DNA of 32,000 nucleotides from Candidatus Zhuqueibacterota bacterium (GCA_015485525.1 WFTM01000433.1:1-32000), one strand, 5' to 3'; positions 2,145-16,530 are shown, counted from the stretch's first letter. Notes: a model not told the origin generated them from the letters alone. Translations and numbers: made by a program.

Positions 2145-2783
2145 TCATTTCACCAGCAAACTGACGCGCCGGTTGACGGGCAGGCCACGTCTGGTTTCAT
2201 CTTCCGGTTCACGCAACCGGGTATCGGCAAACCCCACTGCGACGAAGCGCTGCGGTACAAGCCCGTGATCGATCAGATAGCGGATTACGCGAGCGGAGCG
2301 CGCTGTGGAGAGCTCCCAGTTCGATGGATAGATCGCGTTTTTTGACAGAGGCAGGGTATCGGTGTGGCCCTCGACCTGGATGCTGCGGTCGGCGACTTCT
2401 GGTGTACGAAATATGGCTGCAATAGCGTCGAGCACAGGCCCTGCCTCTTCCTTCAATTCTGCCCGGCCGGAGGCGAAGAGAATCTTGTCCTGAAAATTCA
2501 GCAGCAGGCCATCTTTGGTCAGCTCAACATCGACACTTTCCTGCAACTGATATTCGGCGATGAGCTGCTGGAGTTTTTCTTCCAGTTGGTGCAGAGGCAT
2601 CTGGCGGCTCTCGCTGAAGTATTCCATGATCATCTCAAATTTGCTCTGATCAACCTGCGAGATGGCAAAAAAGAGCACAAAAAAAGCCAGCAGCAGCGTC
2701 ACGAGATCGCTGAAAGAGAGCAGCCAGGGTTGATCATCAGCAGCAGGCTGCCGGCGCAGGAGTTCGGGCATTTCGATTTGCAT
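2145..2783 (-). CDS. motB: MotB-type stator subunit: OmpA-like peptidoglycan-binding domain plus an N-terminal TM helix carrying the conserved Asp
   Basis: This is track ORF 2145..2894. I moved the start to the ATG at 2783 (MQIEMPELL), 4 nt after the MotA stop. The TM segment PWLLSFSDLVTLLLAFFVLFFAIS contains the MotB/ExbD-type protonatable Asp. The C-terminus IQVEGHTDTLPL...NWELSTARSARVIRYL...NRRVSLLV is an OmpA-family domain. Confidence 0.85.
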   Translation of the reverse strand: MQIEMPELLRRQPAADDQPWLLSFSDLVTLLLAFFVLFFAISQVDQSKFEMIMEYFSESRQMPLHQLEEKLQQLIAEYQLQESVDVELTKDGLLLNFQDKILFASGRAELKEEAGPVLDAIAAIFRTPEVADRSIQVEGHTDTLPLSKNAIYPSNWELSTARSARVIRYLIDHGLVPQRFVAVGFADTRLREPEDETRRGLPVNRRVSLLVK

Positions 2784-2787
2784 GGCC

Positions 2788-3594
2788 TTACGCTGCCTTT
2801 CTGATTTTCCTGCGCGCGCCGCTGTCCGCTCGGCTGAGCTTGAACCGCTCGGCCGGACTGAGCAGAGCAGCGAGTTTATCGCGGACGTACACATAATTCT
2901 GCTTATCGTACATCATCAGTACAGCCTCTACCTGCAGGGTTTCGTGCAGCAGATTTGCCTCCGCACGCTCCTTGATCTTGGCAGCAATCGGCGCAAAAAT
3001 CATATTGGAAAGAATCAGGCCGTAGAACGTCGTGGTCAGCGCGATCGCCAAACCGATGCCAACCTGCCCGGGCTGTTCCTGAAGTGTCATCAGCATATTG
3101 ATCAGACCGATCAGCGTGCCGATCATACCAAAGGCCGGTGCGATCCTGCTCATGGTCTGAAACAGCTCGCTCTGCTTGTGCTCGCGGACCATTTTCCAGC
3201 GTACATGGTCTTCGAGAATAGCCCTGGCCTCTTCGCGCGTGTAGCTGTTCGCGAGCATGGACAAGCCATCTTTAAGCACCCACAAGCCATTGAGATTCTT
3301 AATTTTTTCGCTCAACGCCTGCACGCCTTCTTTCTGAAAAATCCGCACAGCCATGACGATATTTTCGATCGCCTTGACATTGTCGTGCACGCCGGAACGG
3401 AAGATGACAAAATAACTCTTGAACCCTCGCAGGACTTCCGGGAAAGGAAACGAAACAAAGGTTGCCGCAATGGTGCCGCCCAGCACGATAGCAAGGCCCT
3501 GCCAGTTGACGAAAACCTCGGGCTCGGCGTTGCCGCTCAGGATGCCGGCGATAACGAGAAACCCGCCGACGAGTATTCCGAATAGTGTAGCCAA
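2788..3594 (-). CDS. motA: MotA/PomA-type stator channel subunit (4-TM MotA/TolQ/ExbB family)
   Basis: 268 aa. There are two N-terminal TM helices, a cytoplasmic loop of about 100 aa, then PAFGMIGTLIGLINML and LTTTFYGLILSNMIFAPIAAKI, the family signature helices. The tail is MotA-like. The start codon is TTG at 3594-3592, preceded by gaggagag 8 nt upstream, and an in-frame stop lies 4 codons upstream, so no ATG alternative exists. Confidence 0.85.
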   Translation of the reverse strand: MATLFGILVGGFLVIAGILSGNAEPEVFVNWQGLAIVLGGTIAATFVSFPFPEVLRGFKSYFVIFRSGVHDNVKAIENIVMAVRIFQKEGVQALSEKIKNLNGLWVLKDGLSMLANSYTREEARAILEDHVRWKMVREHKQSELFQTMSRIAPAFGMIGTLIGLINMLMTLQEQPGQVGIGLAIALTTTFYGLILSNMIFAPIAAKIKERAEANLLHETLQVEAVLMMYDKQNYVYVRDKLAALLSPAERFKLSRADSGARRKIRKAA

Positions 3595-3711: not shown

Positions 3712-4404
3712 TTACTCTGCCGTGCGTACTGCATCCTTCTTGAACCGCGCCACCAGTTGCTTGATCTCATCGAGACCGGGGTTGATCTGCAGGGCGTTTT
3801 CCCACGCCCGTACAGCTTCTGCAACATCGCCGTTGACGAAATAGATCGACCCGCCCAGGGCATAAGCCGAAGCGGTCTCCTGTTTTTTCAGGGAAGCATT
3901 GAGCACGCTCAGCGCCTGTTCATATTTTTGCTGATAAAAGAGCTTCTGCGCCAGATTGATATCCCGGATGATGTCATCGGTGAGGTTCTCATCCGCAAAA
4001 CGGAAGTCTCCGCGCTCCAGTTCCGTATTCAGGCTGTCGGCTGGTGGTGATGCAGGATCACCGGTGAGCAGGCTGTCGCCGTGGGTGATCTCAAGCTCTC
4101 CTTCGCCGCGTTTCAGCTCAAGGTTGAGATTGGTCTGCAGCGGGTCCAGCACCATTTCCACTTCGGTGTCGTTCTGCTTGAACCGTATGTTGAGGTAGGG
4201 ATAGCTGACGGTTTTTTTCAAAACCGACCCGTCCAGCTCAGTGGTCATATAGTTCCGTTTTGCCGCGCTGGTGTCGGGCAGGTCCGCCACGAGTCGCTTC
4301 TCTTCCTGCACGTGCTGCACAACCGTCTCCTTTTTACCGGCACACCCGGCGAGCACGAGAGCGGAAAAGAACAACACACTGTATCGTTGTTGTCGAAAAG
4401 GCAT
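3712..4404 (-). CDS. TPR-repeat lipoprotein
   Basis: MPFRQQRYSVLFFSALVLAGCAGKK carries a lipobox (LAGC). The C-terminal segment YEQALSVLNASLKKQETASAYALGGSIYFVNGDVAEAVRAWENALQINP has TPR character. Confidence 0.75.
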   Translation of the reverse strand: MPFRQQRYSVLFFSALVLAGCAGKKETVVQHVQEEKRLVADLPDTSAAKRNYMTTELDGSVLKKTVSYPYLNIRFKQNDTEVEMVLDPLQTNLNLELKRGEGELEITHGDSLLTGDPASPPADSLNTELERGDFRFADENLTDDIIRDINLAQKLFYQQKYEQALSVLNASLKKQETASAYALGGSIYFVNGDVAEAVRAWENALQINPGLDEIKQLVARFKKDAVRTAE

Positions 4405-4491: not shown

Positions 4492-5625
4492 TCAAAACGT
4501 GTACTGCAGCATGAAAATCTCATACTGCAAACCGTTGATGCGCATCTTGTAGGCAACCTGCCCCTGCTCCAGTGGTACGCCAAGAAATTCCTGTCCCATG
4601 ATCAGATTGAAACCGGTGGAAAAGGAAAAATGCTCGCCGACATCGGTGCGCAGGCCCAGTCCGAGCCCAGTGACATCAGGCATATTCAGGGTGAAATAAC
4701 GGGTCAGAGACAGGTAGAAGGACAGCCAGTCGCTGGTAGCACTCTTCCGGTTTTCGATCAGTGTGGAATAGATCAGCGAGCGCAGGTTATACGACACCGG
4801 ACGGGCTGCCGAGATGCCGTCTTTGCCTTCGGCATAAAAGGAATTGCCGGCGAACTGATCACTGGACAGGCGGACACCTTCGTTCAAAAAAGACAGGCCG
4901 ACACGCAGCTCATAGCGCAGGCGGCTTTTTTCCCAGAGATAATGAAAGACCCCCACATACAAAGACTGATGCGTGATCTTGCCGGAAAAATCTGAGCGCA
5001 GAGCCGTTTCTGCCGCAGCTTCCAGCTCGACGGGGAACACCTCGACACCGCCGATAAAAGAAAATTTGAACGGATTGTTTGAAGGCATACGCATCTGTTC
5101 ATAGGCAGCGAAAGAGCCGGCCCAGAGGACTTCATTGGTGCCGGTGCGGTTCAGGCGCAGATCGAGCATCAGGGCTTTGTCCGGCACATAAGCGAGGTTG
5201 CCTTCGAAGTAGGCATCCACACGCAGGCTGCGGCTGACGCGCCAGAGCTCCCCCGGCGAGGGCAGCGCATTGATGATGGTAAAAGAGGTATCTGTCGAAG
5301 AAATCTTCAGCGTATTGAGCTCCGGCAGGGTCACAACTTTCGGCGTGTCGAGCTGGCGCAGTACTTCGACCAGCCGGTTGCGGAAGTGGTCGCGCAGAGG
5401 CGGTGGAAACCAGGCCTGGTCAGCCTGAATGCGGTACACCGCAACCCGGCCCAGAGTCGGGTCTATGGTGTCGATTTTTTTAGCGACTTCGTCGAGGACT
5501 TCCTCCATCAAGGCCAGCAGCAGGGTGTTGTTATCTTCAGCTTCCTGCCTGGCCGGGGCCTCTCCCGCACCGAAGAGTGCGACACAAACGACAGCGAGTA
5601 CGAACATTTTATTGATCGATTTCAT
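4492..5625 (-). CDS. Outer-membrane beta-barrel protein with an N-terminal periplasmic alpha/beta domain (CsgG/FlgO/TolB-N-like pattern)
   Basis: The signal peptide is MKSINKMFVLAVVCVALFGAGEAPA. The C-terminal half has alternating amphipathic strands and ends in ...EIFMLQYTF, an OMP beta-signal with terminal Phe. The N-terminal block RVAVYRI...VDAYFEGNLAYVPDKALMLDLRLNRTGTNEVLW resembles the domain of the 14675..15400 protein. The start codon lies 4 nt after the stop of the FliG-like gene. Confidence 0.65.
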   Translation of the reverse strand: MKSINKMFVLAVVCVALFGAGEAPARQEAEDNNTLLLALMEEVLDEVAKKIDTIDPTLGRVAVYRIQADQAWFPPPLRDHFRNRLVEVLRQLDTPKVVTLPELNTLKISSTDTSFTIINALPSPGELWRVSRSLRVDAYFEGNLAYVPDKALMLDLRLNRTGTNEVLWAGSFAAYEQMRMPSNNPFKFSFIGGVEVFPVELEAAAETALRSDFSGKITHQSLYVGVFHYLWEKSRLRYELRVGLSFLNEGVRLSSDQFAGNSFYAEGKDGISAARPVSYNLRSLIYSTLIENRKSATSDWLSFYLSLTRYFTLNMPDVTGLGLGLRTDVGEHFSFSTGFNLIMGQEFLGVPLEQGQVAYKMRINGLQYEIFMLQYTF

Positions 5626-5629
5626 GATA

Positions 5630-7453
5630 TCAGCTCACAATCCTTGTCTCATCCTGATTCCCGGGTTTATGATTTTCGCGCACAGCCCTGAGAACCTGCC
5701 TGCGGGCTCGGGCGACGTCATCTTCCGGCGCGTCCTGATTCGCCTCAATGCTCGCCTGTACCAGCTCGGCGAGTTTGTCCGGCAGTGAGGAGATAATCTT
5801 CCCGACGACTTCATCATCAACGCGCACCAGAGATTTGGCCAGAAGCTCGCGATCAACAGCAAAGGCGTACTCGCGCAGTTTTTCGCCGGGCAACTCGACA
5901 AAATCGTTGAAGGTCAGGAAGCGGCGGCGCACACGTTGGGCCAGGTCCATGTCCTGCGTCTCAATCCACGCCAGTGTTTCTTCCTGCTCCTGCTCGTCCA
6001 TGGTTTCGAGAATATCGAGCAGTGCTTCGAGCCCGTTGGCGCGCACGAAACGCATTTTTTCCAGCTCCCGGGCACGCTCTGCAAGCTGGCGGGCAATTTT
6101 GCGGTAAACATCGCTGGGAATGCGCTCGATGCCGCCCATGGATGCGAGCAGTGAGCGGCGCGCTTCCGGCTCCATGGTTTTCAGAAGTTTTGCCGAGCGC
6201 TCCGGACGCAGTTGTGCCAGCACGATTGCTTTCACACCCGGCTTCAACGGTTTGATCAGATGCTGCAACTGGTCATCACTCATCTGGTAGAGGAATGCCA
6301 GCGCGTCTTCCTCCTCGGCATGTCTGCGCGCCTGAAGCGCCAGAAAGCGCAGGTCCTGATCGAACAGTTTGAGCAGGGCGAGACTACGCTCTTTTTGCTC
6401 TTCTTTATCCAGCCGGTCGAGCTCAAGCTGGATTGCCCCGGAGACTTCAGGCCCGAGATACGGCGAGAGCAGGTCCAACAGGCGCGGCGAAGCAGCCGCG
6501 AGCACGATTGCGGTATCGCGCACGCCCTGCTGGCCGTTTTTCTGCATCCACTGCTGAAAAACGCGCGCTGTTGCAGCCGGCGTTCCGACGATGGCGTCGA
6601 TGGTGGCGGCTTTCATTTCTGTCAGCTCTGAACGCTGTTTTACGGCTTCAGAACGTTGCTTTTCCCGATCCCGGGCAGGGAGCGCATGTGCTGAAGCAGC
6701 AGGGGGATTTTCCGCATTTTCGCCCGCCGGGGGACGCAGATGCCGGACGATCGACCGCAAACCGAACAGGAACAGAGCGACCAGCAGAATAGCCAGGCCG
6801 GCAGCAAAAAAGTATGGAAACCAGGCAGACTGCGCGAGGGCGCTTTCCTCAGCCGGCTTCTGGAGTGGTGAAGCAGGCACTTCATCCTGCTGCTGAAGCT
6901 GATCAGGTTCCTGGGGCTCGGGCTTGACCGGAAAAGGCAATGCTTCGACGCGTACCCGGTCGCCGCGCGAGGGGTCTAATCCGGAAATCAAAGCCACCAG
7001 TTTGCGGATGAAGGTTCTGTCCTGTTCTGAAAAAGCATCATCCACCAGGACGGTGGTGCGGATTCTGTTGATAACAATACCAGCCGGCTGCTGAGCCGTG
7101 TCTGCTGTTTCTTCACGGGCTGAATTCGCCGAAGGCTGGTCCGGGACATAGGGCAACCCGGGCAGATTGGTGATATCGCGGCTGAGCAGCGCATCGGGCA
7201 GTTTCGGCAGATCAGCCTGTGGCGTGCGTTTCTCCAGTTCAACATCAGCCCGAACGACAAATTTATTGTGCGGGAAATATGCCAGCAGGGCATTTTCGAG
7301 GTTCCAGCTCAGGTTTGCCTCCATCGAAGCTTCCAGGGCTTCGACAGAGTGAGCGGGGTAAAGTCTGCTCTGGGCCGGGAGAGCCGGCGGAAGAATATTC
7401 CAGACCAGCAGCAGGAGAACGACTGGTTTGACTGTCCTTTTCACGAGTTCCAT
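5630..7453 (-). CDS. Membrane-anchored FliG-like protein: N-terminal signal/TM, a periplasmic FliF/SctJ-type ring-building-motif-like domain, a second TM, then a cytoplasmic full-length FliG (N, M and C domains)
   Basis: This is track ORF 5630..7753. I moved the start to the ATG at 7453 (MELVKRTVKPVVLLLLVWNILPPALPAQS). The second TM is AWFPYFFAAGLAILLVALFLFGL. The last ~330 aa align colinearly with canonical FliG as I remember it: GVRDTAIVLAAASP (FliG_N); KPGVKAIVLAQLRPERSAKLLKTMEPEARRSLL (FliG_M); RRRFLTFNDFVELPGEKLREYAFAVDRELLAKSL...DDVARARRQVLRAVRE (FliG_C, cf. the MFVFEDI.KLDD..IQ..LREVD pattern). The periplasmic part ends in IRTTVLVDDAFSEQDRTFIRKLVALISGLDPSRGDRVRVEALPF, which resembles the FliF/YscJ RBM terminus (..RGD.v.V...pF). 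Confidence 0.7.
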   Translation of the reverse strand: MELVKRTVKPVVLLLLVWNILPPALPAQSRLYPAHSVEALEASMEANLSWNLENALLAYFPHNKFVVRADVELEKRTPQADLPKLPDALLSRDITNLPGLPYVPDQPSANSAREETADTAQQPAGIVINRIRTTVLVDDAFSEQDRTFIRKLVALISGLDPSRGDRVRVEALPFPVKPEPQEPDQLQQQDEVPASPLQKPAEESALAQSAWFPYFFAAGLAILLVALFLFGLRSIVRHLRPPAGENAENPPAASAHALPARDREKQRSEAVKQRSELTEMKAATIDAIVGTPAATARVFQQWMQKNGQQGVRDTAIVLAAASPRLLDLLSPYLGPEVSGAIQLELDRLDKEEQKERSLALLKLFDQDLRFLALQARRHAEEEDALAFLYQMSDDQLQHLIKPLKPGVKAIVLAQLRPERSAKLLKTMEPEARRSLLASMGGIERIPSDVYRKIARQLAERARELEKMRFVRANGLEALLDILETMDEQEQEETLAWIETQDMDLAQRVRRRFLTFNDFVELPGEKLREYAFAVDRELLAKSLVRVDDEVVGKIISSLPDKLAELVQASIEANQDAPEDDVARARRQVLRAVRENHKPGNQDETRIVS

Positions 7454-7632
7454 CCTGTTCTGTATTTGGTGAAATATACAGGGGATATCGGAACCAGAGG
7501 ACAACTCTTGACTGAGGAGATGATTTTTCACCGTATGAATCGGACCTGGCGAGGCATCCTCATCGTGGGGGTGGTGACCAGCGCTGAGGGTGTAGCAGGC
7601 AGGCGAGGCCTGAGAGGTGCAAAGCGGAAATT

Positions 7633-9297
7633 TCAGGGTTTGCGGTTTGTCCCTCGTACCTCCTGTGCCCATTCCGGCTGTGTGCACCGGCACAAGGTCC
7701 GCATGTAGGCGACCAACGACCGGATTTCCGCCGCGCGCAAAGTTTTTCCCCATGCCGGCATGAAGGGATGCTTATCCAGAATCATGCCGCCGGCGGCGAT
7801 GCCATCGAACAGGGTATCGTCTGCCCTGGGCGCCATGGCCGCTCTGTCGGCATGGGCGGTTGGCTTCACGGGTAAAAAGGAGGCGTTAAAGCCGTCTCCC
7901 TGCCCCTGAAGCCCATGGCATGAGGCACAATAGGCACGATAGAGTTCAGGCGCTGAGCGGGGATTTTGCGGGTAAAACCAGGGGGTGAACTCCGGCAGAC
8001 TCTGAGCTGTGGCTGGCCCTGTTTTGTGGGTGAGATATCGGACCAGTGCTTCCCTCCTGCCCGCCGGCATGGGGTGCGCAGGCATAGCGCGGTGGCCCAA
8101 AACCGCCACAGGATCGCGAAGCAGAGCGGCGATAATAGCAGGCTGCAAACGAGAGCCAACCGCTGAAAGGTCCGGCCCGACACGGCCTCCGCGGCCATCG
8201 AGTTGATGGCAGCCGAGACAGGACAGTTTTTCGTGCAGCATTTTTTCGATTTTCCGGCGGGCGAATGGCGATAACGGTGCAGGCACGTCCGCGTTCGATT
8301 CCTTTTCCGGCTTCAGAAAAGTGAGTATTTCGCGGACTTCTTCGTCATCGAGATGAAAGTCAGGCATGCGGCTACCGGAACCGGGGAAATAGCCTGCAGG
8401 ACGCACGACCGTGGGCTTCTGCAAAAAATCTGCGAGCCAGCCGGAGCGCAAACGCCCGCCGGCACCTGCCAGCGGCGGGGCATTGTACTGCCATGGCGCT
8501 TCGAGACCCTTCAAACGGTGGCACGCGAGGCAATTCTGGCTCAAAAACAGCTTTTCCCCAAGCTCAGCCGTTGCGTTGGGGAACGCGGTTCGCGCCTGCC
8601 GGAAGAGTTCTTCGTCCTCTCTTCGCTCATCTTTGCCGCGCGCTGCGAGAAAACGGGCAATCTCCGTAATTTTCCGCCGCGCCCCCGGCAGGCGTTGCTG
8701 CAGGGTTCCGCGTGTCGAATCTGCGGTAAAAAACAGCGCCGGCATGACAGCAGCAGAAACGCCGTAAAACTGAGGCTGAACGAGATAATTTTGCAACCAG
8801 TCCTGCTGCAGCCGCCGGCCCATGCGCGTGAGTTCGGCTGCAGTTCCGGCGCCTGTGCCGTCGAGGGTATGGCACTGCAGGCATCCTGTCTGGGAAATGA
8901 GTTCAGGGGTGGGAATTTTCTCATCGGTATCCGCAGCCTCAGAGATGGCAGCAAATGGCCGCCGGGATGGGTCGGATTTCTGTTCCTGGAGAAAAAGCGT
9001 CACTGCCAGGGCCTGTTCTGCGGAAAAATTGAAATCCGGCATGCGGCTGCGGCCGATATGGACGCGAATCTTTTCAGGCTGCTGCAGGTAGCGGAACAGC
9101 CATGCGGGCTGATATCGTTCACCGGCAAAAGTCAGGTCCGGGGTTTTACTGCGGAAATTCTCTTCCACCGGCACGCCGGGGTGGCAGCCCCCACACCCCA
9201 ACTCTGCCAGCAGATTCTGGCCGGCTGCAGGGGGCGGCGCCACTGCTGAGAGCAGAACGGATATCACTGCCCAGGCTGGTTGTCGGATGGTATTCAT
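7633..9297 (-). CDS. Secreted penta-haem c-type cytochrome (five class-I cytochrome c modules)
   Basis: The signal peptide is MNTIRQPAWAVISVLLSAVAPPPAAGQ. There are five CXXCH motifs: CGGCH, CLQCH, CLACH, CLGCH and CASCH. Each is followed 40-70 aa later by a candidate Met-ligand motif (SRMPDF twice, AVMPALF, HRAMPAH, PFMPAWG). The ATG overlaps the upstream gene stop (ATGA at 9297-9294). Confidence 0.85.
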   Translation of the reverse strand: MNTIRQPAWAVISVLLSAVAPPPAAGQNLLAELGCGGCHPGVPVEENFRSKTPDLTFAGERYQPAWLFRYLQQPEKIRVHIGRSRMPDFNFSAEQALAVTLFLQEQKSDPSRRPFAAISEAADTDEKIPTPELISQTGCLQCHTLDGTGAGTAAELTRMGRRLQQDWLQNYLVQPQFYGVSAAVMPALFFTADSTRGTLQQRLPGARRKITEIARFLAARGKDERREDEELFRQARTAFPNATAELGEKLFLSQNCLACHRLKGLEAPWQYNAPPLAGAGGRLRSGWLADFLQKPTVVRPAGYFPGSGSRMPDFHLDDEEVREILTFLKPEKESNADVPAPLSPFARRKIEKMLHEKLSCLGCHQLDGRGGRVGPDLSAVGSRLQPAIIAALLRDPVAVLGHRAMPAHPMPAGRREALVRYLTHKTGPATAQSLPEFTPWFYPQNPRSAPELYRAYCASCHGLQGQGDGFNASFLPVKPTAHADRAAMAPRADDTLFDGIAAGGMILDKHPFMPAWGKTLRAAEIRSLVAYMRTLCRCTQPEWAQEVRGTNRKP

Positions 9298-10652
9298 GGT
9301 TGATAGTTCACTACAAAAAAGTCGCGGATGATCTTCTTCCTGCGCAACTCCGTGCCTTTGCGTTTGGCCTGTTCTTTGGTGGCAAAGGCGCCGACACGGA
9401 TTTTATACCAGCCGCCTTTTCGTGCTGGTGCAGCCAGGACGGCATCGAGACCGGCCTTTTTCAGCCGGCGCAGTTCTTTTTCCGCACTGCTCCGCTTCTT
9501 GACCGCAGCCACCTGCAGAGCAAAACGGGTATTCTGTGGAATGACCTTTGGCGCTGCGGCCGCGGCCTTTTCGGTCTCGCTCTTTGGAGCCGGCAGAAAG
9601 AGATAGAGCACCAGCAGAAAGACAGCAGCAGCAAGAGTATAATAAACATAACGCCGGTACAGGACAACGCGCTGCCACAGTTGTAAAGCCTGTTGCTGCA
9701 CCAGAAAAACAAGCCGTGCTGCGCGGCCGCTCAGGCTGCGGCTTTCCTGCTCTATTTGATCCTGCTCCCAGCGGGCGATATCTTCGGGCTGAAACTCCGT
9801 GACAACGGTGCGGAGTTTTTCGGCCAGTTCTCCGCTCAGGCCCAGGGCCACGACAGCCTGGTGGCACCTGTACAGCTGGCGATCGATCTCCTGTCTCCTG
9901 TCTTCAGGCCCCTGCTCACGGGCCGCCAGATACAACCAGCAGGCGAAGTCATCATGCCTGTCTGCCCGCAACACCTGCGGCAGACACAGTGCGATGATCT
10001 CTGCTGTCATGCTGCTGCCCTGCTGCAGTGCCTGTTTGTAAAAATACTCAGCACGGAAGTGGGTCTGCCGGTCTTTGAGATAGTGTGCGGCCATGTAGTG
10101 AATGATATCGCGGTCATCCGGCCTGTGTTCATGCAGGGTTTCGGCGAGATCGACAAGGGACAGCGTGAGAACGGGCTGGCGGAGCAGAAACTGTTTGAGG
10201 GCGATGAAGGCATCCTCCTCGCGAATCCCGCGCTGCAGACAGTGCAGCAGCACGCGGCGGTAGCGGGCGGAGGCGACGTTCAGGCGATAAAAATCGAAAT
10301 AGCGACGCAGAAGATTGTTGCGCAGGGTCTCTTTCTGGGCACGGGACAGCAGCCCGCCGCTGAACAAGCGATCGAGCCAGGTAAAGACCTCACTCAGCCG
10401 GTTGGTTTCATTACTCTGCAGAAAATACCAGCCCACGCGGTCCAGCGCTTCGAAACGCCGGCGGCCGATGAGATTGAGCAGGAGGTGAATGGTCAGCAGA
10501 AGCACCACCCAGCTCAGCAGAACAACCGGCACATCGCGGAAGTAGGTTTGCGGGAAGACGAGTTCATGCAGCACAAAAAGCACGGCCAGTGCAACTGGTG
10601 GCAGTGCGACAAAACTGATAAATAGACGCAGGGCAAGACTGTTCATAATCAT
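9294..10652 (-). CDS. Polytopic membrane protein with a large cytoplasmic helical domain and a C-terminal periplasmic SPOR (peptidoglycan-binding) domain
   Basis: 452 aa. Two N-terminal TM helices, about 280 aa of helical Arg/Leu-rich region, a third TM (YVYYTLAAAVFLLVLYLFL), then FALQVAAVKKRSSAEKELRRLKKAGLDAVLAAPARKGGWYKIRVGAFATKEQAKRKGTEL, which matches the SPOR pattern. Confidence 0.8.
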   Translation of the reverse strand: MIMNSLALRLFISFVALPPVALAVLFVLHELVFPQTYFRDVPVVLLSWVVLLLTIHLLLNLIGRRRFEALDRVGWYFLQSNETNRLSEVFTWLDRLFSGGLLSRAQKETLRNNLLRRYFDFYRLNVASARYRRVLLHCLQRGIREEDAFIALKQFLLRQPVLTLSLVDLAETLHEHRPDDRDIIHYMAAHYLKDRQTHFRAEYFYKQALQQGSSMTAEIIALCLPQVLRADRHDDFACWLYLAAREQGPEDRRQEIDRQLYRCHQAVVALGLSGELAEKLRTVVTEFQPEDIARWEQDQIEQESRSLSGRAARLVFLVQQQALQLWQRVVLYRRYVYYTLAAAVFLLVLYLFLPAPKSETEKAAAAAPKVIPQNTRFALQVAAVKKRSSAEKELRRLKKAGLDAVLAAPARKGGWYKIRVGAFATKEQAKRKGTELRRKKIIRDFFVVNYQP

Positions 10653-10693: not shown

Positions 10694-12022
10694 TTACTGG
10701 CCTTTCTCCCGTTTCTTCTGAATTTTCTCAATTCTTCCGGCTGCTTCGCGGGCCTTTTTGTGCTCGGGATAATTTTTCAAAACCAGGTCATAGCAACCGA
10801 GGGCGCTTTCCAGATCATTGGCTTTGTTCTCATACAACCGGCCGGCCTTGACGAGCAGGTCAGGTGCCTTGTTATACGTCGGGAAAGCTTCAACGATCCG
10901 GACGTATTGCAGCGCGGCATTGACGTAATCCTTGAAACGGCGTTCATATAGATAAGCTGCCTCTTCCAGGGCTGGAATCGCCCTTTCATCATCGGAATAG
11001 TTGTCCGCAATCTCGAGGTAGGTGGCGATGGCACCGGCATAATCTTTTTTCTCATCTGTCTGGATTTCTGCAACCTGCAGCAAAGCATCGACAGCATACG
11101 GAGAGTCCGGGTACTGCTTGACGACACTGCGGTAGGTCACCATGGCAGCATCGGGCTGCTTGAGTTTTCTCTCTTCTACTTCAGCCAGCAGGAAGAGCGC
11201 ACGCGGCGCAACAGGACTTCTGGGCTGCTCAGATACGATCATTTTGAAGACCTCTGCAGCGTCTTCCGGCTTGTCGAGTTTTTTGTACAACAGCTCCCCC
11301 CGCCGGAAACGTACATCAGCGAGCTGGGGGCTCAATGGAAAAACACTCTCGAATTTAAACAACAGCGCGGCAGCCTGATGCTGTCTGCCGGCACGCAGAT
11401 ACATCCCTGCCTGCATGGCCAGCATTTTATCACCGCGGTCATCGTCCGGGAAACGCGTCAGCCAGGAGCGCGCTTCACGCAGCAGCCAATCGTTCAGGGA
11501 ACGGATATCCAGAGCATACAACGCCTTGACCAGAGCAAACCGCCGGCCCGCATCACTCTGGCCATCGCTGCCGTTCATCAACGCGAGTACAGCGTCAGCG
11601 TTTTTCTTAAAACTTTTCTCCTTAGCCACCAGGGCACGCACACGATCTCTGGCCACATCCAGGTCTTCAAAATCGGGATACAAAAACAACAACTTCAAAT
11701 ATGAGGCTATGGCCTCAGGTCGCTTCCGCTTCTCGGAATAGACCTCAGCAAGCATCGCCTGCACGCGTGGCGCATATTTGGAGAACGGAAACGTTTGATG
11801 AAAACTCTCCAGTTCCTCGATCAGCAGGGTGTAGTTTTTTTTCTCATGCTGGTCGTAAACATTTTTCAGCCAGTCAAAAACACGATCATCCTGCACGCCG
11901 GACTGCGGCTCCGGAACAACCACAGCACCCGGCGAGCCCGGGGCTTCCTGAAGCAACAGCAACACAGCCAGAATGATAATCTTAGCCAGTACAAACTGTC
12001 TTCTGCTTCTGCCATTTTCCAT
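10694..12022 (-). CDS. TPR-repeat protein (YbgF/BamD-like TPR_6 type) with an N-terminal signal anchor
   Basis: 442 aa. It starts MENGRSRRQFVLAKIIILAVLLLLQEAPG. Helical-hairpin units recur, each ending in ..YP(D/E)S(P)..(A)..A.. (for example VVKQYPDSPYAVDALLQVAEIQ and VLKNYPEHKKAREAAGRIEKIQ). It is the first gene of the minus-strand cluster. Confidence 0.8.
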   Translation of the reverse strand: MENGRSRRQFVLAKIIILAVLLLLQEAPGSPGAVVVPEPQSGVQDDRVFDWLKNVYDQHEKKNYTLLIEELESFHQTFPFSKYAPRVQAMLAEVYSEKRKRPEAIASYLKLLFLYPDFEDLDVARDRVRALVAKEKSFKKNADAVLALMNGSDGQSDAGRRFALVKALYALDIRSLNDWLLREARSWLTRFPDDDRGDKMLAMQAGMYLRAGRQHQAAALLFKFESVFPLSPQLADVRFRRGELLYKKLDKPEDAAEVFKMIVSEQPRSPVAPRALFLLAEVEERKLKQPDAAMVTYRSVVKQYPDSPYAVDALLQVAEIQTDEKKDYAGAIATYLEIADNYSDDERAIPALEEAAYLYERRFKDYVNAALQYVRIVEAFPTYNKAPDLLVKAGRLYENKANDLESALGCYDLVLKNYPEHKKAREAAGRIEKIQKKREKGQ

Positions 12023-12189: not shown

Positions 12190-12690
12190 GCAGGGAGCCA
12201 TCCCCGGTATTCCAGCCACAGAGAAGCGGTGTGACGAGAGGAAGCGGGGAAGAAAAACGTGACAAAACATCAACAAACCTTCAGCCCTATCGGATCAGTC
12301 ACGATCAGTAAAACAGACCCGGACGAAGCGAGTGCGGGCTCGCAGAAGCACACTCGCCTACAGCGTCACACTACTGAAGCGAAGCGGAGTGTCTGAATCT
12401 CCCCGGCATGGATGCGGCTTTTGGGGCAGGTGGTATTTCCTTGCGCTGGTGACCTGCCGCAGGAGCGGCAAGAGGGCGTCACACCGCAGGAGCGGTGTGA
12501 CGAGAGGAGACCTGGACGAAGCGAAGCAGTGTGCCGGCAAATCCCCGGCGTGGGTGCAGGCTTTTGGGGAGCGGTATTTCGTTTCGCTTGTGGACTGCCC
12601 CGCCGATGCGGGGCAACTGGGGCGTTACACCGCAGGAGCGGACGTTACACCGCGGGAGCGGACGTTACACCGCGGGAGCGGTGTAACGAG
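12190..12690 (+). repeat. Family B repeat cluster: one truncated unit (about 12190-12242) plus two tandem units (about 12316-12509 and 12510-12690)
   Basis: Units I and II align as ac(c/t)ggacgaagcga..gtg..aatc(t)ccccggc(a/g)tgg(a/g)tgc(g/a)gcttttgggg..ggtatttc..cgct.gtg.actgcc..gc..cgt(c/t)acaccgc-agga-gcggtgt(g/a)acgag. The terminal hairpin cgtcacaccgc-agga-gcggtgtgacg lies at 12477-12502. The same modules recur at 14413, 16711, 24742 and 24905. Confidence 0.8.
12623..12688 (+). repeat. Head-to-tail 20-bp triplication of the 5' arm and loop of the family B terminal hairpin
   Basis: cgttacaccgcaggagcgga (12623-12642), cgttacaccgcgggagcgga (12643-12662), then the complete hairpin cgttacaccgc-ggga-gcggtgtaacg (12663-12688). 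Confidence 0.85.
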
Positions 12691-12792
12691 GGCTTTTCAG
12701 ATATCGCGCTTTCTCTGTGCACTGTGCTTCTTCTGAAAGCAGAGTGCATGCGCAATCAGCAACCGTCATTCCAACCTCCGGAGAGTACCACA

Positions 12793-13167
12793 ATGTCACA
12801 TCTTCAGCTCAGCAGCAACCGGCTCCCGACCAACCGCCGGTCGGCTACACGAATTCAGACCTGGCGTATCCTGTCCTTTTTGAAAGATGACAGCTGGCAC
12901 ATCGGCTATGTCAAGGACATCAGCGAAACGGGCGTACAGATCATCTGCAGCACGCCGCTCTCTCCCGGCGAAAAAACGGCAATCCTGTTCGAAAATATCG
13001 AGCATCTCTGGAATATCATCGTGGAGGGGACGGTGGTGTGGCAGAAAAATTATCATGAGGACCAGGATCACCGGAACACAGAACCGACGATGGGGATTGA
13101 ATTTTTCCAGCGTCTGCCGGTTGAAATCACCCGCTTCGCGCGTGTAAAAATGCGCATGGCCGAATAG
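12793..13167 (+). CDS. Stand-alone PilZ-domain protein (predicted c-di-GMP receptor)
   Basis: This is the C-terminal 124 aa of track ORF 12412..13167. The start is set at the ATG at 12793, with ggagag 9 nt upstream; the ATG at 12748 is an alternative. Both PilZ signatures are present: RRSATR (RxxxR) and DISETG (D/NxSxxG). The upstream part of the track ORF reads through family B repeats. Confidence 0.8.
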   Translation: MSHLQLSSNRLPTNRRSATRIQTWRILSFLKDDSWHIGYVKDISETGVQIICSTPLSPGEKTAILFENIEHLWNIIVEGTVVWQKNYHEDQDHRNTEPTMGIEFFQRLPVEITRFARVKMRMAE

Positions 13168-13905: not shown

Positions 13906-14412
13906 AATCTACCTTTTGGGTTACAGCCTGAAGAACACCGTTTGTGAAAGAATCGGGCTGAATGTGGCTATCGTCCGGTAAAGCCCGATACTTATAAGCC
14001 GCTTGGCAGGCTTCACACACTGACGGAAAAATAAAACACAACATCTTTATTTATAAAGAGTTAGAAAATTGCGCTGAATGTATGAAATTTGCCTGCAAAA
14101 GTCAAGAACAGGCATTCAGTCGGCGCCTACACTGAGCTGGAAACTCCAACATGGCACCGAAAAACGCTGGAGGGGAAACATACATCCCCGCCCACTCCAT
14201 ACGCCTGGCTTCTGAAAACGCCTGCCGCTCATCACCAACGCCAGAAAAATGTTACACTTTTTTCTAATTTCAACAAAAAAAACAGACCTGCTTCTTCCGC
14301 ATTCCAGTGCAAAAACGCTATAGTACTGAAGACAAGACAGCCTGAAAATTCAGATATGTATAAATTCCGCTCGATCAGATTTATTTTGAAACAGCGTGAC
14401 GCCTGCGCAGAT

Positions 14413-14523
14413 CGATTCCCGGCTCAGCGCTGCTCAAGGATAACAGGCTTTCGGGGCAGGCGGCATCCCGCTTCGTCTATGTACTGCCGCAGGAACGTCA
14501 CACCGCTGGAGCGGTATGACGCG
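14413..14523 (+). repeat. Family B repeat, shortened copy B3
   Basis: gattcccggc..ggataacaggctttcggggcaggcggcatcccgcttcgtctatgtactgccgcaggaacgtcacaccgc-tgga-gcggtatgacg is colinear with 12395-12502. The H4 hairpin is deleted and the terminal stem carries one C/A mismatch. Confidence 0.7.
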
Positions 14524-14674
14524 TGCAAGATGAGAGTACTGAACAGACTTGCTGTTGTTTTAAAAATGTGTTCGTGCAGAGAACGTATCCAAAAGAGATT
14601 CCTGCGCACAAGATAAAATGTACACCGACCGTCCACTCCGGCCGGGTGGATCGATTTACTAGGGAGAGTAACTA

Positions 14675-15400
14675 ATGAAGAAATTCGTCGTGGGGCTGCT
14701 GGTTTTCGGCATGGGCTATTTCAGTGTTATGCCGGCAGTACTGGCTGTGACGCAACAGGGGAGGCGCATCGTTATCGCCGTGGTTGACTTCAAGAACAAC
14801 AGCGGCAACCCTCAGCTCGATAACTTCGAACAGGCCATCCCGGAAGCACTGATCACCAACCTTGCCCGCAATGAACGCATCGAAATCGTCGAACGCACCC
14901 AATTGCAGAATGCCCTTTCAGAGCTGCAACTGAGCATGTCCGGCATCGTCGATGCGCGTACGGCTGTGGAGGTCGGCCGTGCAGTCGGGGCAACGGCGAT
15001 CCTGGTCGGCAGTTTTCTGCAGATCGAAGGGCGCATTCAGATCAACGCCCGCCTGATCGATGTGCGCACCAGCCGGGTTTTGAAGGCAGCAGGGGTTCGC
15101 GGGCGCAGCGGAGCGGAAATCTTTGAACTCATGGACAGACTGGCCGCTTCCATCGAAGCGCGCCTGTTTGGCAAAAGTGTTCCGCAGACGCAAAACAGAA
15201 CGTCAGTAAACGGAGCATCGCGCCAGCGCAGTAACGCGAATGCTGCTGAAAAGTCCGGTGGTTCGTTTCTCAGCTCACCGATCTTTTGGGGTGCCATGGC
15301 GCTTGGGGCCGGAGCCGGGGCTTTCCTCGTTTTGGGGGCTACGGAAGATGAACCAGCCAAAACCGCGGTGACCATCACCATTTCTCTGCCCGACAGATAA
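14675..15400 (+). CDS. CsgG/FlgO/LpoB-like periplasmic alpha/beta-domain protein with a C-terminal hydrophobic segment
   Basis: The SD agggagag lies 7 nt upstream. The signal peptide is MKKFVVGLLVFGMGYFSVMPAVLA. The block RIVIAVVDFKNNSGNPQLDNFEQAIPEALITNLARNERIEIVERTQLQNALSELQLSMSGIVD...ATAILVGSFLQIEGRIQINARLIDVRTSRVL is the pattern shared by CsgG, LpoB, FlgO and TolB-N-like proteins. A C-terminal segment FLSSPIFWGAMALGAGAGAFLVLGA follows. Confidence 0.65.
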   Translation: MKKFVVGLLVFGMGYFSVMPAVLAVTQQGRRIVIAVVDFKNNSGNPQLDNFEQAIPEALITNLARNERIEIVERTQLQNALSELQLSMSGIVDARTAVEVGRAVGATAILVGSFLQIEGRIQINARLIDVRTSRVLKAAGVRGRSGAEIFELMDRLAASIEARLFGKSVPQTQNRTSVNGASRQRSNANAAEKSGGSFLSSPIFWGAMALGAGAGAFLVLGATEDEPAKTAVTITISLPDR

Positions 15401-15519: not shown

Positions 15520-16530
15520 ATGAAACGGACTTTGTATAACTCCCTGATCATAACAGGCATTTTCCTGCTCCTGCACAGCTGCGGACGCCTGCCGGGTTCT
15601 GCTTCGCGCAGCACGCAGGTCAACCTCGAAATTGATATCTCAGAAAAAGCTATTGGAAAAATTTCACCGGGCAAACAGATCGCCGGGCCTGAGACAGTGA
15701 TCATCACAGTCACAGCACCTGATATCACCGATCCCATCGTCGTTACAGCAGGTATCATCGGCCGCCGTGCGCAGGTGGATGTGGATGTTCCTCAGGGTGA
15801 ATCGCGAACATTTACGCTGGAAATCACCGGGCCACGTGGCTTTATCTGGTACACCGGCACAAAGACGGTGGACCTGACCGAGCAGCAACTGAGCATGGCA
15901 ATCCGCGCAGTAGATGCGTGGACAGATGCCGGCAATTCGTCCCTCGACCCGGCGCAGATCACCAACGTTGTCTGGGCCAGCGCTATAGACGCTGCTTTTG
16001 CTGAGGAAATCGATTTGCCACCCGACGAGGAGGTGTATTTCTGGGGGCTGGCTTTTTACATGGGTGCAGGAGAGATCAAACCCGATGAATACGAAGTTGC
16101 GGCCTACATTGGCAACCTGGCAGATGGTTCAGCACAGCAGTTTGTTTCCGGAAATCCGGCGCTCACCGCAGAACAGTGGAACACCATCCCGATCAGCTGG
16201 AATGATGAAGAGGCCGCGTTGATTTCCGGAAAAATCAACATCGGCCTGATCTACAAAACCGATCTCGGCCAGCCGCGGATCGGCTATGAACCGAAGAATT
16301 CGGCAAAGACCTGGTTTTTCTCGCCCAGCTCCGGCACCTGGCTGAATGTGGCCAATGATCTCTCCTCGATCAATCCCGGTGCTCTCGCTGTGCGCGCGCT
16401 CTTTTTACGGCGTACCCTGCCTGCGGCGGATCCGCAGAGTCTGATCGCCATCTCGCCTGATGGCACTGTAGAAAAATGGCCGATCACTCACGGGCAGATT
16501 TCCAGCCAGACCCTGCACCAGGTGCGCTGA
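15520..16530 (+). CDS. Lipoprotein of unknown function
   Basis: MKRTLYNSLIITGIFLLLHSCGRLPG carries a lipobox (LHSC). It is 336 aa and I recognise no family motif. Confidence 0.7.
   Translation: MKRTLYNSLIITGIFLLLHSCGRLPGSASRSTQVNLEIDISEKAIGKISPGKQIAGPETVIITVTAPDITDPIVVTAGIIGRRAQVDVDVPQGESRTFTLEITGPRGFIWYTGTKTVDLTEQQLSMAIRAVDAWTDAGNSSLDPAQITNVVWASAIDAAFAEEIDLPPDEEVYFWGLAFYMGAGEIKPDEYEVAAYIGNLADGSAQQFVSGNPALTAEQWNTIPISWNDEEAALISGKINIGLIYKTDLGQPRIGYEPKNSAKTWFFSPSSGTWLNVANDLSSINPGALAVRALFLRRTLPAADPQSLIAISPDGTVEKWPITHGQISSQTLHQVR

Follow-up and report, generated by a model that had tools for sequence, protein, structure and literature searches.

A natural fusion of FliF-like and FliG-like sequences, encoded with a flagellar-type stator in a conserved five-gene cassette of uncultured bacteria

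The DNA analyzed here, a stretch of 32,000 nucleotides from a Candidatus Zhuqueibacterota bacterium (GCA_015485525.1 WFTM01000433.1:1-32000; this whole stretch is called the window), encodes a protein of 607 amino acids (aa) in which sequences resembling two flagellar rotor proteins, FliF and FliG, are joined in one chain. The initial annotation of the window, made from the sequence alone, had proposed that a single open reading frame (ORF) fuses a FliF-like ring module to FliG. This proposal was confirmed by the ORF itself, by Pfam, by AlphaFold2 (AF2) modelling, by Foldseek, and by the homologues, and all of the peptides quoted in it were found in the translation. The longest frame spans 5630..7753 on the minus strand. 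The Met codon at 7453 was taken as the start, because the homologues begin at the corresponding Met and the longer frame overlaps the upstream cytochrome c gene (7633-9297). It was found that the main context, beyond the fusion gene on its own as viewed in the initial annotation, is a five-gene cassette (Table 1). On the same strand, the fusion gene is followed by genes for a 377-aa outer-membrane protein, a tetratricopeptide repeat (TPR) lipoprotein, a MotA-type protein, and a MotB-type protein. This order is identical in 17/17 related loci long enough to show it. The same order is seen in deeply diverged loci on a 1.36-Mb contig (~25% identity), in an Elusimicrobiota-labelled metagenome-assembled genome (MAG), and in a Fibrobacterales-labelled MAG. 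In the first two (L023 and L024), a profile of the 377-aa protein located its homologue immediately downstream of the fusion gene.

The AF2 model of the fusion protein is a monomer built with 25 homologues as input and has a mean predicted local distance difference test score (pLDDT) of 74. Its N-terminal part consists of a hydrophobic helix (8-20), a helix (34-59), a strand (65-75), a low-confidence stretch (76-125), a strand (126-137), a helix (143-157), and a strand (166-171). Beyond these, a membrane helix (212-239) and a disordered linker precede an all-helical region (260-603). The predicted layout is a signal-like N-terminus, a domain of the ring-building motif 3 (RBM3) type with a 50-aa insert, one transmembrane (TM) helix, a helix resembling the FliF C-terminus, and the N (by fold only), M, and C domains of FliG. 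In a Foldseek search against the PDB, the best match of the model was the full-length FliG 3hjl (8e-10, 327 aligned columns), followed by 8umx_B, 8wiw, and 9n49_G. The structures ranking after FliG were those of the FliF RBM3 or S-ring (8z5v_A, 7bk0_B, 8z4d, 8ftf, and 6sd1), with a target TM-score of about 0.5-0.6. Judging from these matches and the model, the protein joins, by natural fusion, the C-terminal half of FliF to a FliG that is divergent yet full-length. The Prokaryotic Genome Annotation Pipeline names members of the family only as 'FliG C-terminal domain-containing protein' or 'hypothetical protein'.

Table 1. Coordinates in the window of the fusion gene, of its parts, and of the other cassette genes
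Feature	Position	Strand	Basis
FliF(RBM3)-TM-FliG fusion gene, 607 aa	5630..7453	-	ORF, Pfam, AF2 model, Foldseek, 38 full-length homologues
N-terminal hydrophobic segment (aa 1-27), putative Sec signal peptide …ALPA↓QS	7373..7453	-	helix 8-20 in AF2; conserved A-Q after hydrophobic stretch
RBM3a half (aa 34-75), helix and strand	7229..7354	-	H34-59, E65-75 in AF2; conserved SMEANLTWNLxNALLxYxPxxKFVV
50-aa insert (aa 76-125) at FliF beta-collar position, LPxLPDALL…LPGLPxxP motif	7079..7228	-	low pLDDT; homologue conservation
RBM3b half (aa 126-172), strand-helix-strand ending in RGD	6938..7078	-	E126-137, H143-157, E166-171; Pfam YscJ_FliF_C
Transmembrane helix (aa 211-233)	6755..6823	-	H212-239 in AF2; hydrophobic segment ~50 aa after RGD in nearly all 132 representatives
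FliF-C-terminus-like helix (aa 270-305), IDAIVGTPAATARVFQQWM	6539..6646	-	pLDDT 85-93; invariant G290, P292, W302
FliG_N-like helical domain (aa 306-385)	6299..6538	-	Foldseek, 310-329 columns to full-length FliG (3hjl, 8umx_B, 9n49_G)
FliG_M domain (aa 386-470), LKPG replacing EHPQ	6044..6298	-	Pfam FliG_M 9e-10; alignment to 1lkv, 4fhr, 3hjl
FliG_C domain (aa 474-600), F-L-T-F hinge at MFXF position	5654..6034	-	Pfam FliG_C; Foldseek; hinge columns
Torque-helix equivalent (aa 557-573), LPDKLAELVQASIEANQ	5735..5785	-	alignment with T. maritima FliG (MSKRAAALLKDELEYMG) and with FliG of Aquifex and Vibrio
Cassette gene 2: 377-aa outer-membrane protein	4492..5625	-	AF2 pLDDT 82; Foldseek; 38 homologues
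Cassette gene 3: 230-aa TPR lipoprotein, lipobox LAG↓C	3712..4404	-	sequence; Pfam TPR; position conserved in all loci
Cassette gene 4: MotA/PomA-type stator A subunit, start codon uncertain	2788..3594	-	Pfam MotA_ExbB 2.8e-22; PDB; NCBIfam
Cassette gene 5: MotB-type stator B subunit (plug, TM with Asp, OmpA-like)	2145..2783	-	Pfam MotB_plug 1.8e-17, OmpA 4e-16

Is this architecture common? The full-length homologues of the fusion number 38, with 44-99% identity. An exhaustive profile search over 1.84 billion cluster representatives gave 161 matches below 1e-30, the best 150 of which were examined. In this set, 132 are 540-780 aa in length and are covered end to end by the profile. By this measure, the protein clusters (50% identity) with the fusion architecture number at least 132, and they stem from independent projects. 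In nearly all of the 132 representatives, an N-terminal hydrophobic segment is followed by [LMI]PG[LIV], by RGD about 65 residues further on, and, another 50 residues or so beyond RGD, by a TM segment. In a set of 44 diverse members, Pfam detected FliG_C in 44, FliG_M in 43, FliG_N in 33, YscJ_FliF_C in 15, and an N-terminal LysM in 2. The organism labels of the carriers are candidate division KSB1, Calditrichaeota, Fibrobacterales, Elusimicrobiota, and, for one MAG, 'Pseudomonadota'. The window itself is about 98% identical to DRLW01000271 ('Bacteroidetes bacterium HyVt-473'). A word-indexed search with the 44-member diverse alignment returned the same 39 proteins and no added taxonomy. Two proteins of FliG length (P0211 and P0215, 331 aa each) match the FliG part of the fusion profile with E-values of about 1e-35, while their scores against the FliG equivalog model (45 and 105 bits) are far below the cut-off. 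Possibly these belong to the family in an unfused form; truncation of the gene calls is the other possibility.

The periplasmic part of the fusion resembles FliF in fold and in order of elements. The alpha-beta-beta-alpha-beta pattern first read from the sequence is reproduced in the AF2 model, and the likeness to a ring-building motif proposed with it agrees with the FliF structures found by Foldseek. Pfam YscJ_FliF_C matches residues 118-174 (4e-6, 27.7 bits against a cut-off of 23.8, model positions 88-147), and the RBM3b half is colinear with …GRGDLLNV… of Vibrio FliF in a profile alignment. In flagellar FliF, a layout of RBM3a, beta-collar, and RBM3b has been described (PMC11481574). The fusion has a matching split: a helix and a strand, then the insert, then strand-helix-strand ending in RGD. 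The RGD motif is well conserved (R in 106/132, G in 126/132, and D in 127/132 representatives). For the SctJ-like RBM1 and RBM2, no match to the N-terminal YscJ_FliF family was found, and the approximately 180 periplasmic residues are filled by RBM3, the insert, and the linker.

The insert had been described as a Pro- and Asp-rich stretch of about 60 aa between the middle strands. Its composition is as stated (8 Pro and 5 Asp), but it is 50 aa long and bears a motif. The sequence LPxLPDALLxxxLxxLPGLPxxP is near-invariant, with twelve invariant residues (L82, P83, L85, P86, L89, L90, L97, P98, G99, L100, P101, and P104) among homologues of 44-78% identity. Its LPGLP portion is kept family-wide (P98 in 102/132 and G99 in 103/132 representatives, the remainder being mostly alignment gaps). 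Because of this motif, conservation marks the insert as more than a linker or a spacer. As for the membrane topology, one TM helix (212-239) is clear, whereas FliF has two. The N-terminal segment resembles a cleavable signal peptide and, by sequence and model, is probably a cleaved Sec signal peptide; alternatively, it could be an anchor equivalent to the first TM helix of FliF (TM1). After the membrane helix, the FliF-C-terminus-like helix of Table 1 lines up with the C-terminal FliG-binding segment of Vibrio FliF, VRALVANEPELAAQVVKNWM. The HMMER stretch is colinear, weak, and individually non-significant. The alignment is suggestive of a segment corresponding to the FliG-binding tail of FliF.

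The C-terminal region had been described as colinear with the N, M, and C domains of FliG. The M and C domains exceed the Pfam gathering scores (FliG_M, 9e-10 and 39 bits against a cut-off of 25; FliG_C, 1.6e-19 and 70.6 bits against 23.3), and the C domain matches 1qc7 and 8ucs_H in Foldseek (target TM-scores of 0.81 and 0.84, respectively). The N domain is recognized by fold only. A Pfam FliG_N match falls on residues 409-492, a repeat cross-match within the M region, and thus gives no support for an N domain. A sequence profile of residues 262-392, comprising the FliG_N-like domain and the FliF-like tail, found nothing significant in the PDB. One relative (P0122) matches positions 25-328 of the FliG model TIGR00207. 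An identity of the C-terminal region with MgtE_N-type helical repeats and nothing else was rejected, because FliG_M and FliG_C score far better; MgtE_N was weaker and below its cut-off. On the other hand, the TIGR00207 equivalog has a cut-off of 226.7 bits, which neither the fusion (77.3 bits) nor any of eight relatives (37-112 bits) reaches.

Which functional residues of FliG are kept? The family profile was aligned with the solved structures of T. maritima, Aquifex, and Vibrio FliG (E-values down to 7e-17), and the alignment was repeated with hmmalign. It upheld the replacement of the FliM-binding EHPQ by L-K-P-G and revealed no shift in the torque-helix alignment that had been made earlier. 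The torque helix MSKRAAALLKDELEYMGPVR aligns opposite LPDKLAELVQASIEANQDAP. K560 corresponds to R281, A567/S568 to D288/D289, and P576 to R297; the basic residue is thus kept at the R281 position, while the D288/D289 acids and R297 are absent. An invariant E563 and a conserved E570 lie one turn to either side of A567/S568. At the MFXF hinge the sequence is F-L-T-F, and at the Gly-Gly linker it is N-G; across the 132 representatives, both the hinge and one Gly of the linker are conserved. In the same set, the R281 equivalent is basic in 126/132, the R297 position is basic in 15/132, and an acid is found at 288 or 289 in 83/132 and at both in 15/132. In the EHPQR motif, E is kept in 116 of the 132 representatives, H in none, Q in 6, and R160 in 11. 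Judging from these alignments, the loss of the FliM-binding motif is general in the family. Since 83/132 keep an acid at 288 or 289, the complete loss of these acids is particular to the KSB1-type clade of this window.

The fusion therefore falls outside FliG in four respects, namely its equivalog score, EHPQR, the charges at R281/D288/D289/R297, and the partnership with FliM/FliN, and outside FliF in RBM1/RBM2. The earlier suggestion of a rotor that dispenses with FliM fits the degenerate EHPQR motif and a cassette without fliM or fliN, although FliM may be encoded elsewhere in the genome. In the changed charge pattern suggested toward the stator, the lack of the D288/D289 acids is confirmed by the alignment for this clade and does not extend to the whole family.

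The second gene of the cassette gave no match in Pfam. In the model of its product (pLDDT 82), a signal peptide and a long helix precede an alpha/beta domain, which is followed by an 8-stranded barrel with …QYTF at its end. In Foldseek, the alpha/beta domain matched the TolB N-domain (3e-6), the LpoB C-domain (4q6z, target TM-score 0.63), and PelC, while the barrel matched Ail, NspA, OmpW, and OmpA. Because of these domain and barrel matches, the modelled protein is taken to be a periplasmic module with an outer-membrane anchor. Of its 38 homologues, those that can be placed on contigs or loci adjoin the fusion gene. Concerning the TPR lipoprotein encoded next, the Elusimicrobiota-labelled locus has a MotB of 341 aa with a C-terminal TPR (L024, 14758-15783, plus strand). 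This is a hint, by analogy, of joint action between the TPR partner and the periplasmic portion of MotB. Periplasmic TPR proteins are known to scaffold stators in complex flagellar motors (PMC13023049).

The last two genes encode a stator of flagellar type. The cassette MotA matches PDB entries of MotA and PomA, including 6ysf, with E-values of 1e-28 to 3e-33, and the Clostridium sporogenes MotA of a MotAB-FliG complex (8ucs) with 4e-33. Its best NCBIfam score among the PomA and MotP models is 138.6 bits, against a PomA equivalog cut-off of 341. The start of MotB was taken at the Met giving 212 aa (homologues, 210-227 aa), and the best NCBIfam score of this protein is 158.3 bits, against a MotD cut-off of 283. 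The prolines equivalent to P173 and P222 of MotA are invariant in 19/19 sequences, and the channel Asp of MotB is invariant in 16/16. The plug has been reported to be absent from non-flagellar MotAB relatives (10.1101/2024.07.22.604496). Because the plug, the channel Asp, the OmpA-like domain, and both MotA prolines are kept, it is very likely that the stator is an active ion-driven unit of flagellar type.

In canonical motors, the rotor-stator charge pairs are R90 of MotA with D288/D289 of FliG, and E98 with R281 (PMC12505986). The MotA loop ARREGLLSLED of 8ucs reads FQKEGVQALSE in the cassette MotA. Among 19 MotA sequences of the family, the R90 equivalent is usually R or K, and the E98 equivalent is not conserved. 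Thus, in this clade, the R90 equivalent is kept but its acidic partners in FliG are gone, and K is kept at the R281 position but the E98 equivalent is gone. As each pair is broken on one side, these alignments imply that a FliG-MotA interface, if it exists, must be re-patterned.

No other flagellar genes (fliM/fliN, export gate, rod, or hook) were found in the window or in the 8-10 kb flanks of at least 20 loci. The genes beside the cassette in the window were also inspected. Directly upstream of the fusion gene, 7633-9297 (minus strand) encodes a protein of 554 aa in which five stretches are of cytochrome c type and one segment is FixO-like; among the cassette loci, it is present only in the near-identical contig L004. 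Upstream of it lie genes for a SPOR-domain protein (9294-10652, minus strand) and a YbgF/CpoB-like TPR protein (10694-12022, minus strand; TIGR02795, 119.9 bits, above the cut-off). Both belong to cell-division and envelope themes and are not conserved with the cassette. A divergently oriented gene about 5 kb from the fusion gene (12412-13167, plus strand) encodes a 251-aa protein with a C-terminal PilZ domain, like the flagellar brake YcgR in size and layout, and has no homologue in the other loci. The cytochrome c, SPOR, YbgF-like, and PilZ genes were rejected as parts of the system, because they are absent beside the cassette in every locus except L004.

Further along the plus strand, 14675-15400 encodes a CsgG/LpoB/FlgO/TolB_N-type protein between two proteins without family matches (14089-14616 and 15520-16530, plus strand). 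It shares a fold class with the periplasmic domain of the 377-aa cassette protein. A 1652-aa protein with FG-GAP/ASPIC repeats and Ig-like domains is encoded at 17183-22141 (plus strand). It carries a C-terminal sorting signal for type IX secretion, and thus the organism probably has a type IX secretion system. Smaller FG-GAP/Por_Secre_tail proteins are encoded near the cassette in two other loci (L001 and L002). A promoter and terminator scan gave counts no higher than those of shuffled sequences, and a scan for tRNA genes found none.

How might the cassette work? Domain homologies, topology elements, the cassette itself, intact ion-path residues, a degenerate FliM motif, and the missing RBM1/RBM2 are directly supported. 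The interpretation I prefer, with a probability of roughly 60%, is that the fusion forms a self-contained, switchless rotor ring driven by MotAB and derived from or related to the flagellar motor. Ring formation, rotation, and independence of a flagellum are inferred. The fusion would self-assemble, as FliF and engineered FliF-FliG proteins do, into a ring with the FliF:FliG ratio fixed at 1:1, and a periplasmic RBM3 ring would sit atop a cytoplasmic FliG ring. Peptidoglycan-anchored MotA5B2 units would use ion flow to push the torque helix of FliG_C through a re-patterned electrostatic interface. There would be no chemotactic switching because there is no FliM/FliN. Because RBM1/RBM2, the export gate, and the rod are missing, the ring would export nothing and carry no axle. 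Its output is probably periplasmic, and the periplasm would be the site of mechanical output or of stator scaffolding. There, the LPGLP-bearing collar may meet the outer-membrane-anchored TolB-N-like protein and the TPR lipoprotein, as a load or as a stator scaffold. As a guess, ion-motive force might be used here to drive a process of the envelope or the cell surface. It is possible, and is put forward tentatively, that the cassette is an autonomous rotary motor that uses FliG and MotAB in the absence of type III export, axle, or filament and turns a periplasmic ring coupled to outer-membrane proteins; this would be the first non-flagellar use of these proteins.

Several points weigh against a rotating ring. 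Both canonical charge pairs are broken in this clade, each on one side. The FliG_N domain and the FliF tail are assigned by fold and a short motif only. In P0181 and one other of the 44 diverse members, an N-terminal LysM, which is a peptidoglycan-binding domain, precedes RBM3; it could tether the supposed rotor to peptidoglycan, which argues against free rotation in these two members. The distant members L025 and L026 have no adjacent motAB genes and instead have TPR/Sel1 and small barrel-like neighbours. TPR and outer-membrane proteins may have become associated with the fusion before motAB did, or these genomes may carry motAB at another site. All of the carriers are MAGs, and their labels are unreliable. 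Finally, a KSB1 survey bears on the relation to flagella. In its Table S7, clade IV genomes mostly have 2 fliG, 2 motA, 1 fliF, and 1 fliM, while GCA_002085355.1 and GCA_014729735.1 of clade III have 1 fliG and 1 motA and lack fliF, fliM, flhA, and fliE (PMC9012183). These patterns are as expected if the cassette is an extra unit occurring with and without flagella, subject to MAG incompleteness, but the fliG and motA counts are not tied to the fusion family, and the two proteins checked by locus tag belong to other assemblies.

Could the ring be fixed rather than rotating? The fusion might form a non-rotating ring or a smaller oligomer, an inner-membrane platform that recruits or activates MotAB, the work being passed to the envelope in the manner of Tol-Pal or TonB via the outer-membrane protein and the TPR lipoprotein. 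The TolB-N-like domain and a YbgF/CpoB-like role for the TPR protein recall Tol-Pal, the LysM domain on 2/44 members would suit an anchored platform, and so would the loss of the canonical charge pairs. The YbgF-like and SPOR genes upstream point the same way in this window alone; like the cytochrome gene, they are not conserved beside the cassette. Since MotB is itself peptidoglycan-anchored, however, a fixed FliG would leave nothing but the MotA pentamer to move, against a static track. Moreover, features for torque transmission (the FliG_C fold, the basic R281 equivalent, the MFXF hinge, and the linker Gly) are conserved over the 132 representatives. A fixed platform is therefore judged unlikely.

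It is less probable still that the cassette serves an ordinary flagellum, either as its rotor or as an additional set of stator and rotor, FliF and FliG having been fused and pruned while FliM/FliN, the export gate, and the rod are encoded elsewhere. Near-complete flagellar gene sets have been reported for KSB1 clades II and IV (PMC9012183), the stator, which has a plug, belongs to the PomA/MotA type of flagella, and engineered FliF-FliG fusions work in Salmonella. However, RBM1 and RBM2, which hold the export gate in FliF, are both absent from a periplasmic part of only about 180 aa, the FliM-binding EHPQR is degenerate, and the loci examined contain no flagellar gene beyond the cassette. The cassette has its own outer-membrane partners, and the counts in Table S7 suggest a second fliG/motA set in clade IV and a fliG-motA pair lacking fliF, fliM, and flhA in two clade III genomes. 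The most improbable explanation, by a wide measure, is an assembly or gene-calling artefact, or a functionless and decaying flagellar remnant. All of the sequences come from metagenome assemblies, and the FliG equivalog score is low (77 bits against 226.7). Nevertheless, the same architecture recurs in the 132 or more clusters from independent projects, the ORFs are intact with dozens of invariant residues across homologues of 44-78% identity, the five genes have co-diverged in a fixed order down to about 25% identity, and the catalytic residues of the stator do not vary. To the extent that sequence data can do so, this pattern of conservation refutes an artefact or a remnant.

Torque generation by FliG and MotAB is not known outside flagella. 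The novelty here is an apparently autonomous flagellar-type rotor-stator module in uncultured lineages, the parts of which belong to flagellar motor families at the domain level. If the rotor-ring interpretation is true, there exists a widespread and compact rotor that is naturally fused, has a stator of its own, and lacks an export apparatus. The cassette, with five genes and one rotor protein, would then be a minimal system in which to study how the ring assembles, its stoichiometry, and the generation of torque. It would also be a natural test of which FliG-MotA contacts are required, since the canonical charge pairs are re-patterned. It is an old open question how a type III export machine first became coupled to a rotary motor, and the cassette offers a comparison point for models of flagellar origin. 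Given the deep divergence across several phylum labels, its ancestor could have been a rotor-stator module that predates the flagellum or is parallel to it, and not a degraded flagellum. There is also a warning for annotation: matches to 'fliG' and 'motA' in uncultured genomes of the Fibrobacteres-Chlorobi-Bacteroidetes (FCB) group and in Elusimicrobiota-labelled genomes do not by themselves indicate flagellar motility. No description of the fusion family was found in the full-text literature, a search with most subscription journals outside its range, and a prior description is possible.

Compared with the flagellar rotor, the fusion shares the alpha-beta-beta-alpha-beta fold of RBM3, an insert at the beta-collar position, the terminal RGD, and a TM helix with FliF, and the M and C folds, the torque helix, the MFXF-type hinge, and a linker Gly with FliG. 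The stator shares the PomA/MotA type, the plug, the channel Asp, and the OmpA-like anchor with MotAB and PomAB. In contrast, the flagellar rotor consists of two polypeptides and the fusion of one. Flagellar FliF has RBM1/RBM2, which the fusion lacks, and TM1, in place of which the fusion probably has a cleaved signal peptide. The beta-collar insert is about 90-110 aa in FliF and 50 aa with LPGLP in the fusion. Flagellar FliG has EHPQR, D288/D289, and R297; in the fusion, EHPQR is degenerate and those charge equivalents are lost in this clade. Flagellar loci encode FliM/FliN, the export gate, rod, hook, and filament, none of which is near the cassette, which has an outer-membrane barrel protein and a TPR lipoprotein. 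The cassette proteins score far below the equivalog cut-offs of FliG and of MotA/MotB.

Other systems resemble the outer part of the cassette. The TolQR-TolA-TolB-Pal-CpoB, ExbBD-TonB, and GldLM systems likewise combine an engine of the MotA/MotB family with outer-membrane-associated partners, and Tol-Pal shares a TolB-N-like domain and a TPR protein with the cassette. However, these systems transmit force via an extended B subunit or a TolA/TonB-type protein and have neither FliG nor an RBM ring. Their A and B subunits have no MotB plug (10.1101/2024.07.22.604496), whereas the cassette MotB has one. The scaffolds of complex flagellar motors (the TPR proteins PflA/PflB, MotC/MotK, and FlcB, and FlgO/FlgP-type lipoproteins) place TPR and outer-membrane-linked proteins around the collar, where they hold the stator in position (PMC13023049). 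They are additions to a full flagellum, and their likeness to the cassette partners is one of type, with no sequence relationship shown.

Fusions of FliF and FliG have precedents. Engineered FliF-FliG fusions form 34/35-mer rings, and a Salmonella fusion has been reported to be functional (PMC11481574, PMC6079021). The engineered proteins of Salmonella and Vibrio (FliFG, PDB 8z4d/8z4g) have the same order, FliF and then FliG in one chain, and 8z4d was matched by both the sequence profile and the fold search of the natural fusion. They contain full-length FliF (about 945 aa in total) and act inside a complete flagellum, whereas the natural protein has 607 aa and extends only from RBM3 to the C-terminus. 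The nearest natural precedent is the FliF-FliG(M) fusion of Chlamydiaceae (Bergeron 2016, PMC4768692). It is about 330 aa in length, with RBM2, one further RBM, two TM helices, and FliG_M only, and has been proposed to work with the injectisome; no MotAB is associated with it (PMC4768692). Like the present protein, it is a natural union of a shortened FliF with FliG-like sequence; the Chlamydiaceae build no flagellum. Its architecture is nevertheless different: the Chlamydiaceae protein lacks FliG_C and the torque helix, whereas the present family has RBM3 as its only RBM, the M and C domains of FliG (and N by fold), and a MotAB stator of its own.

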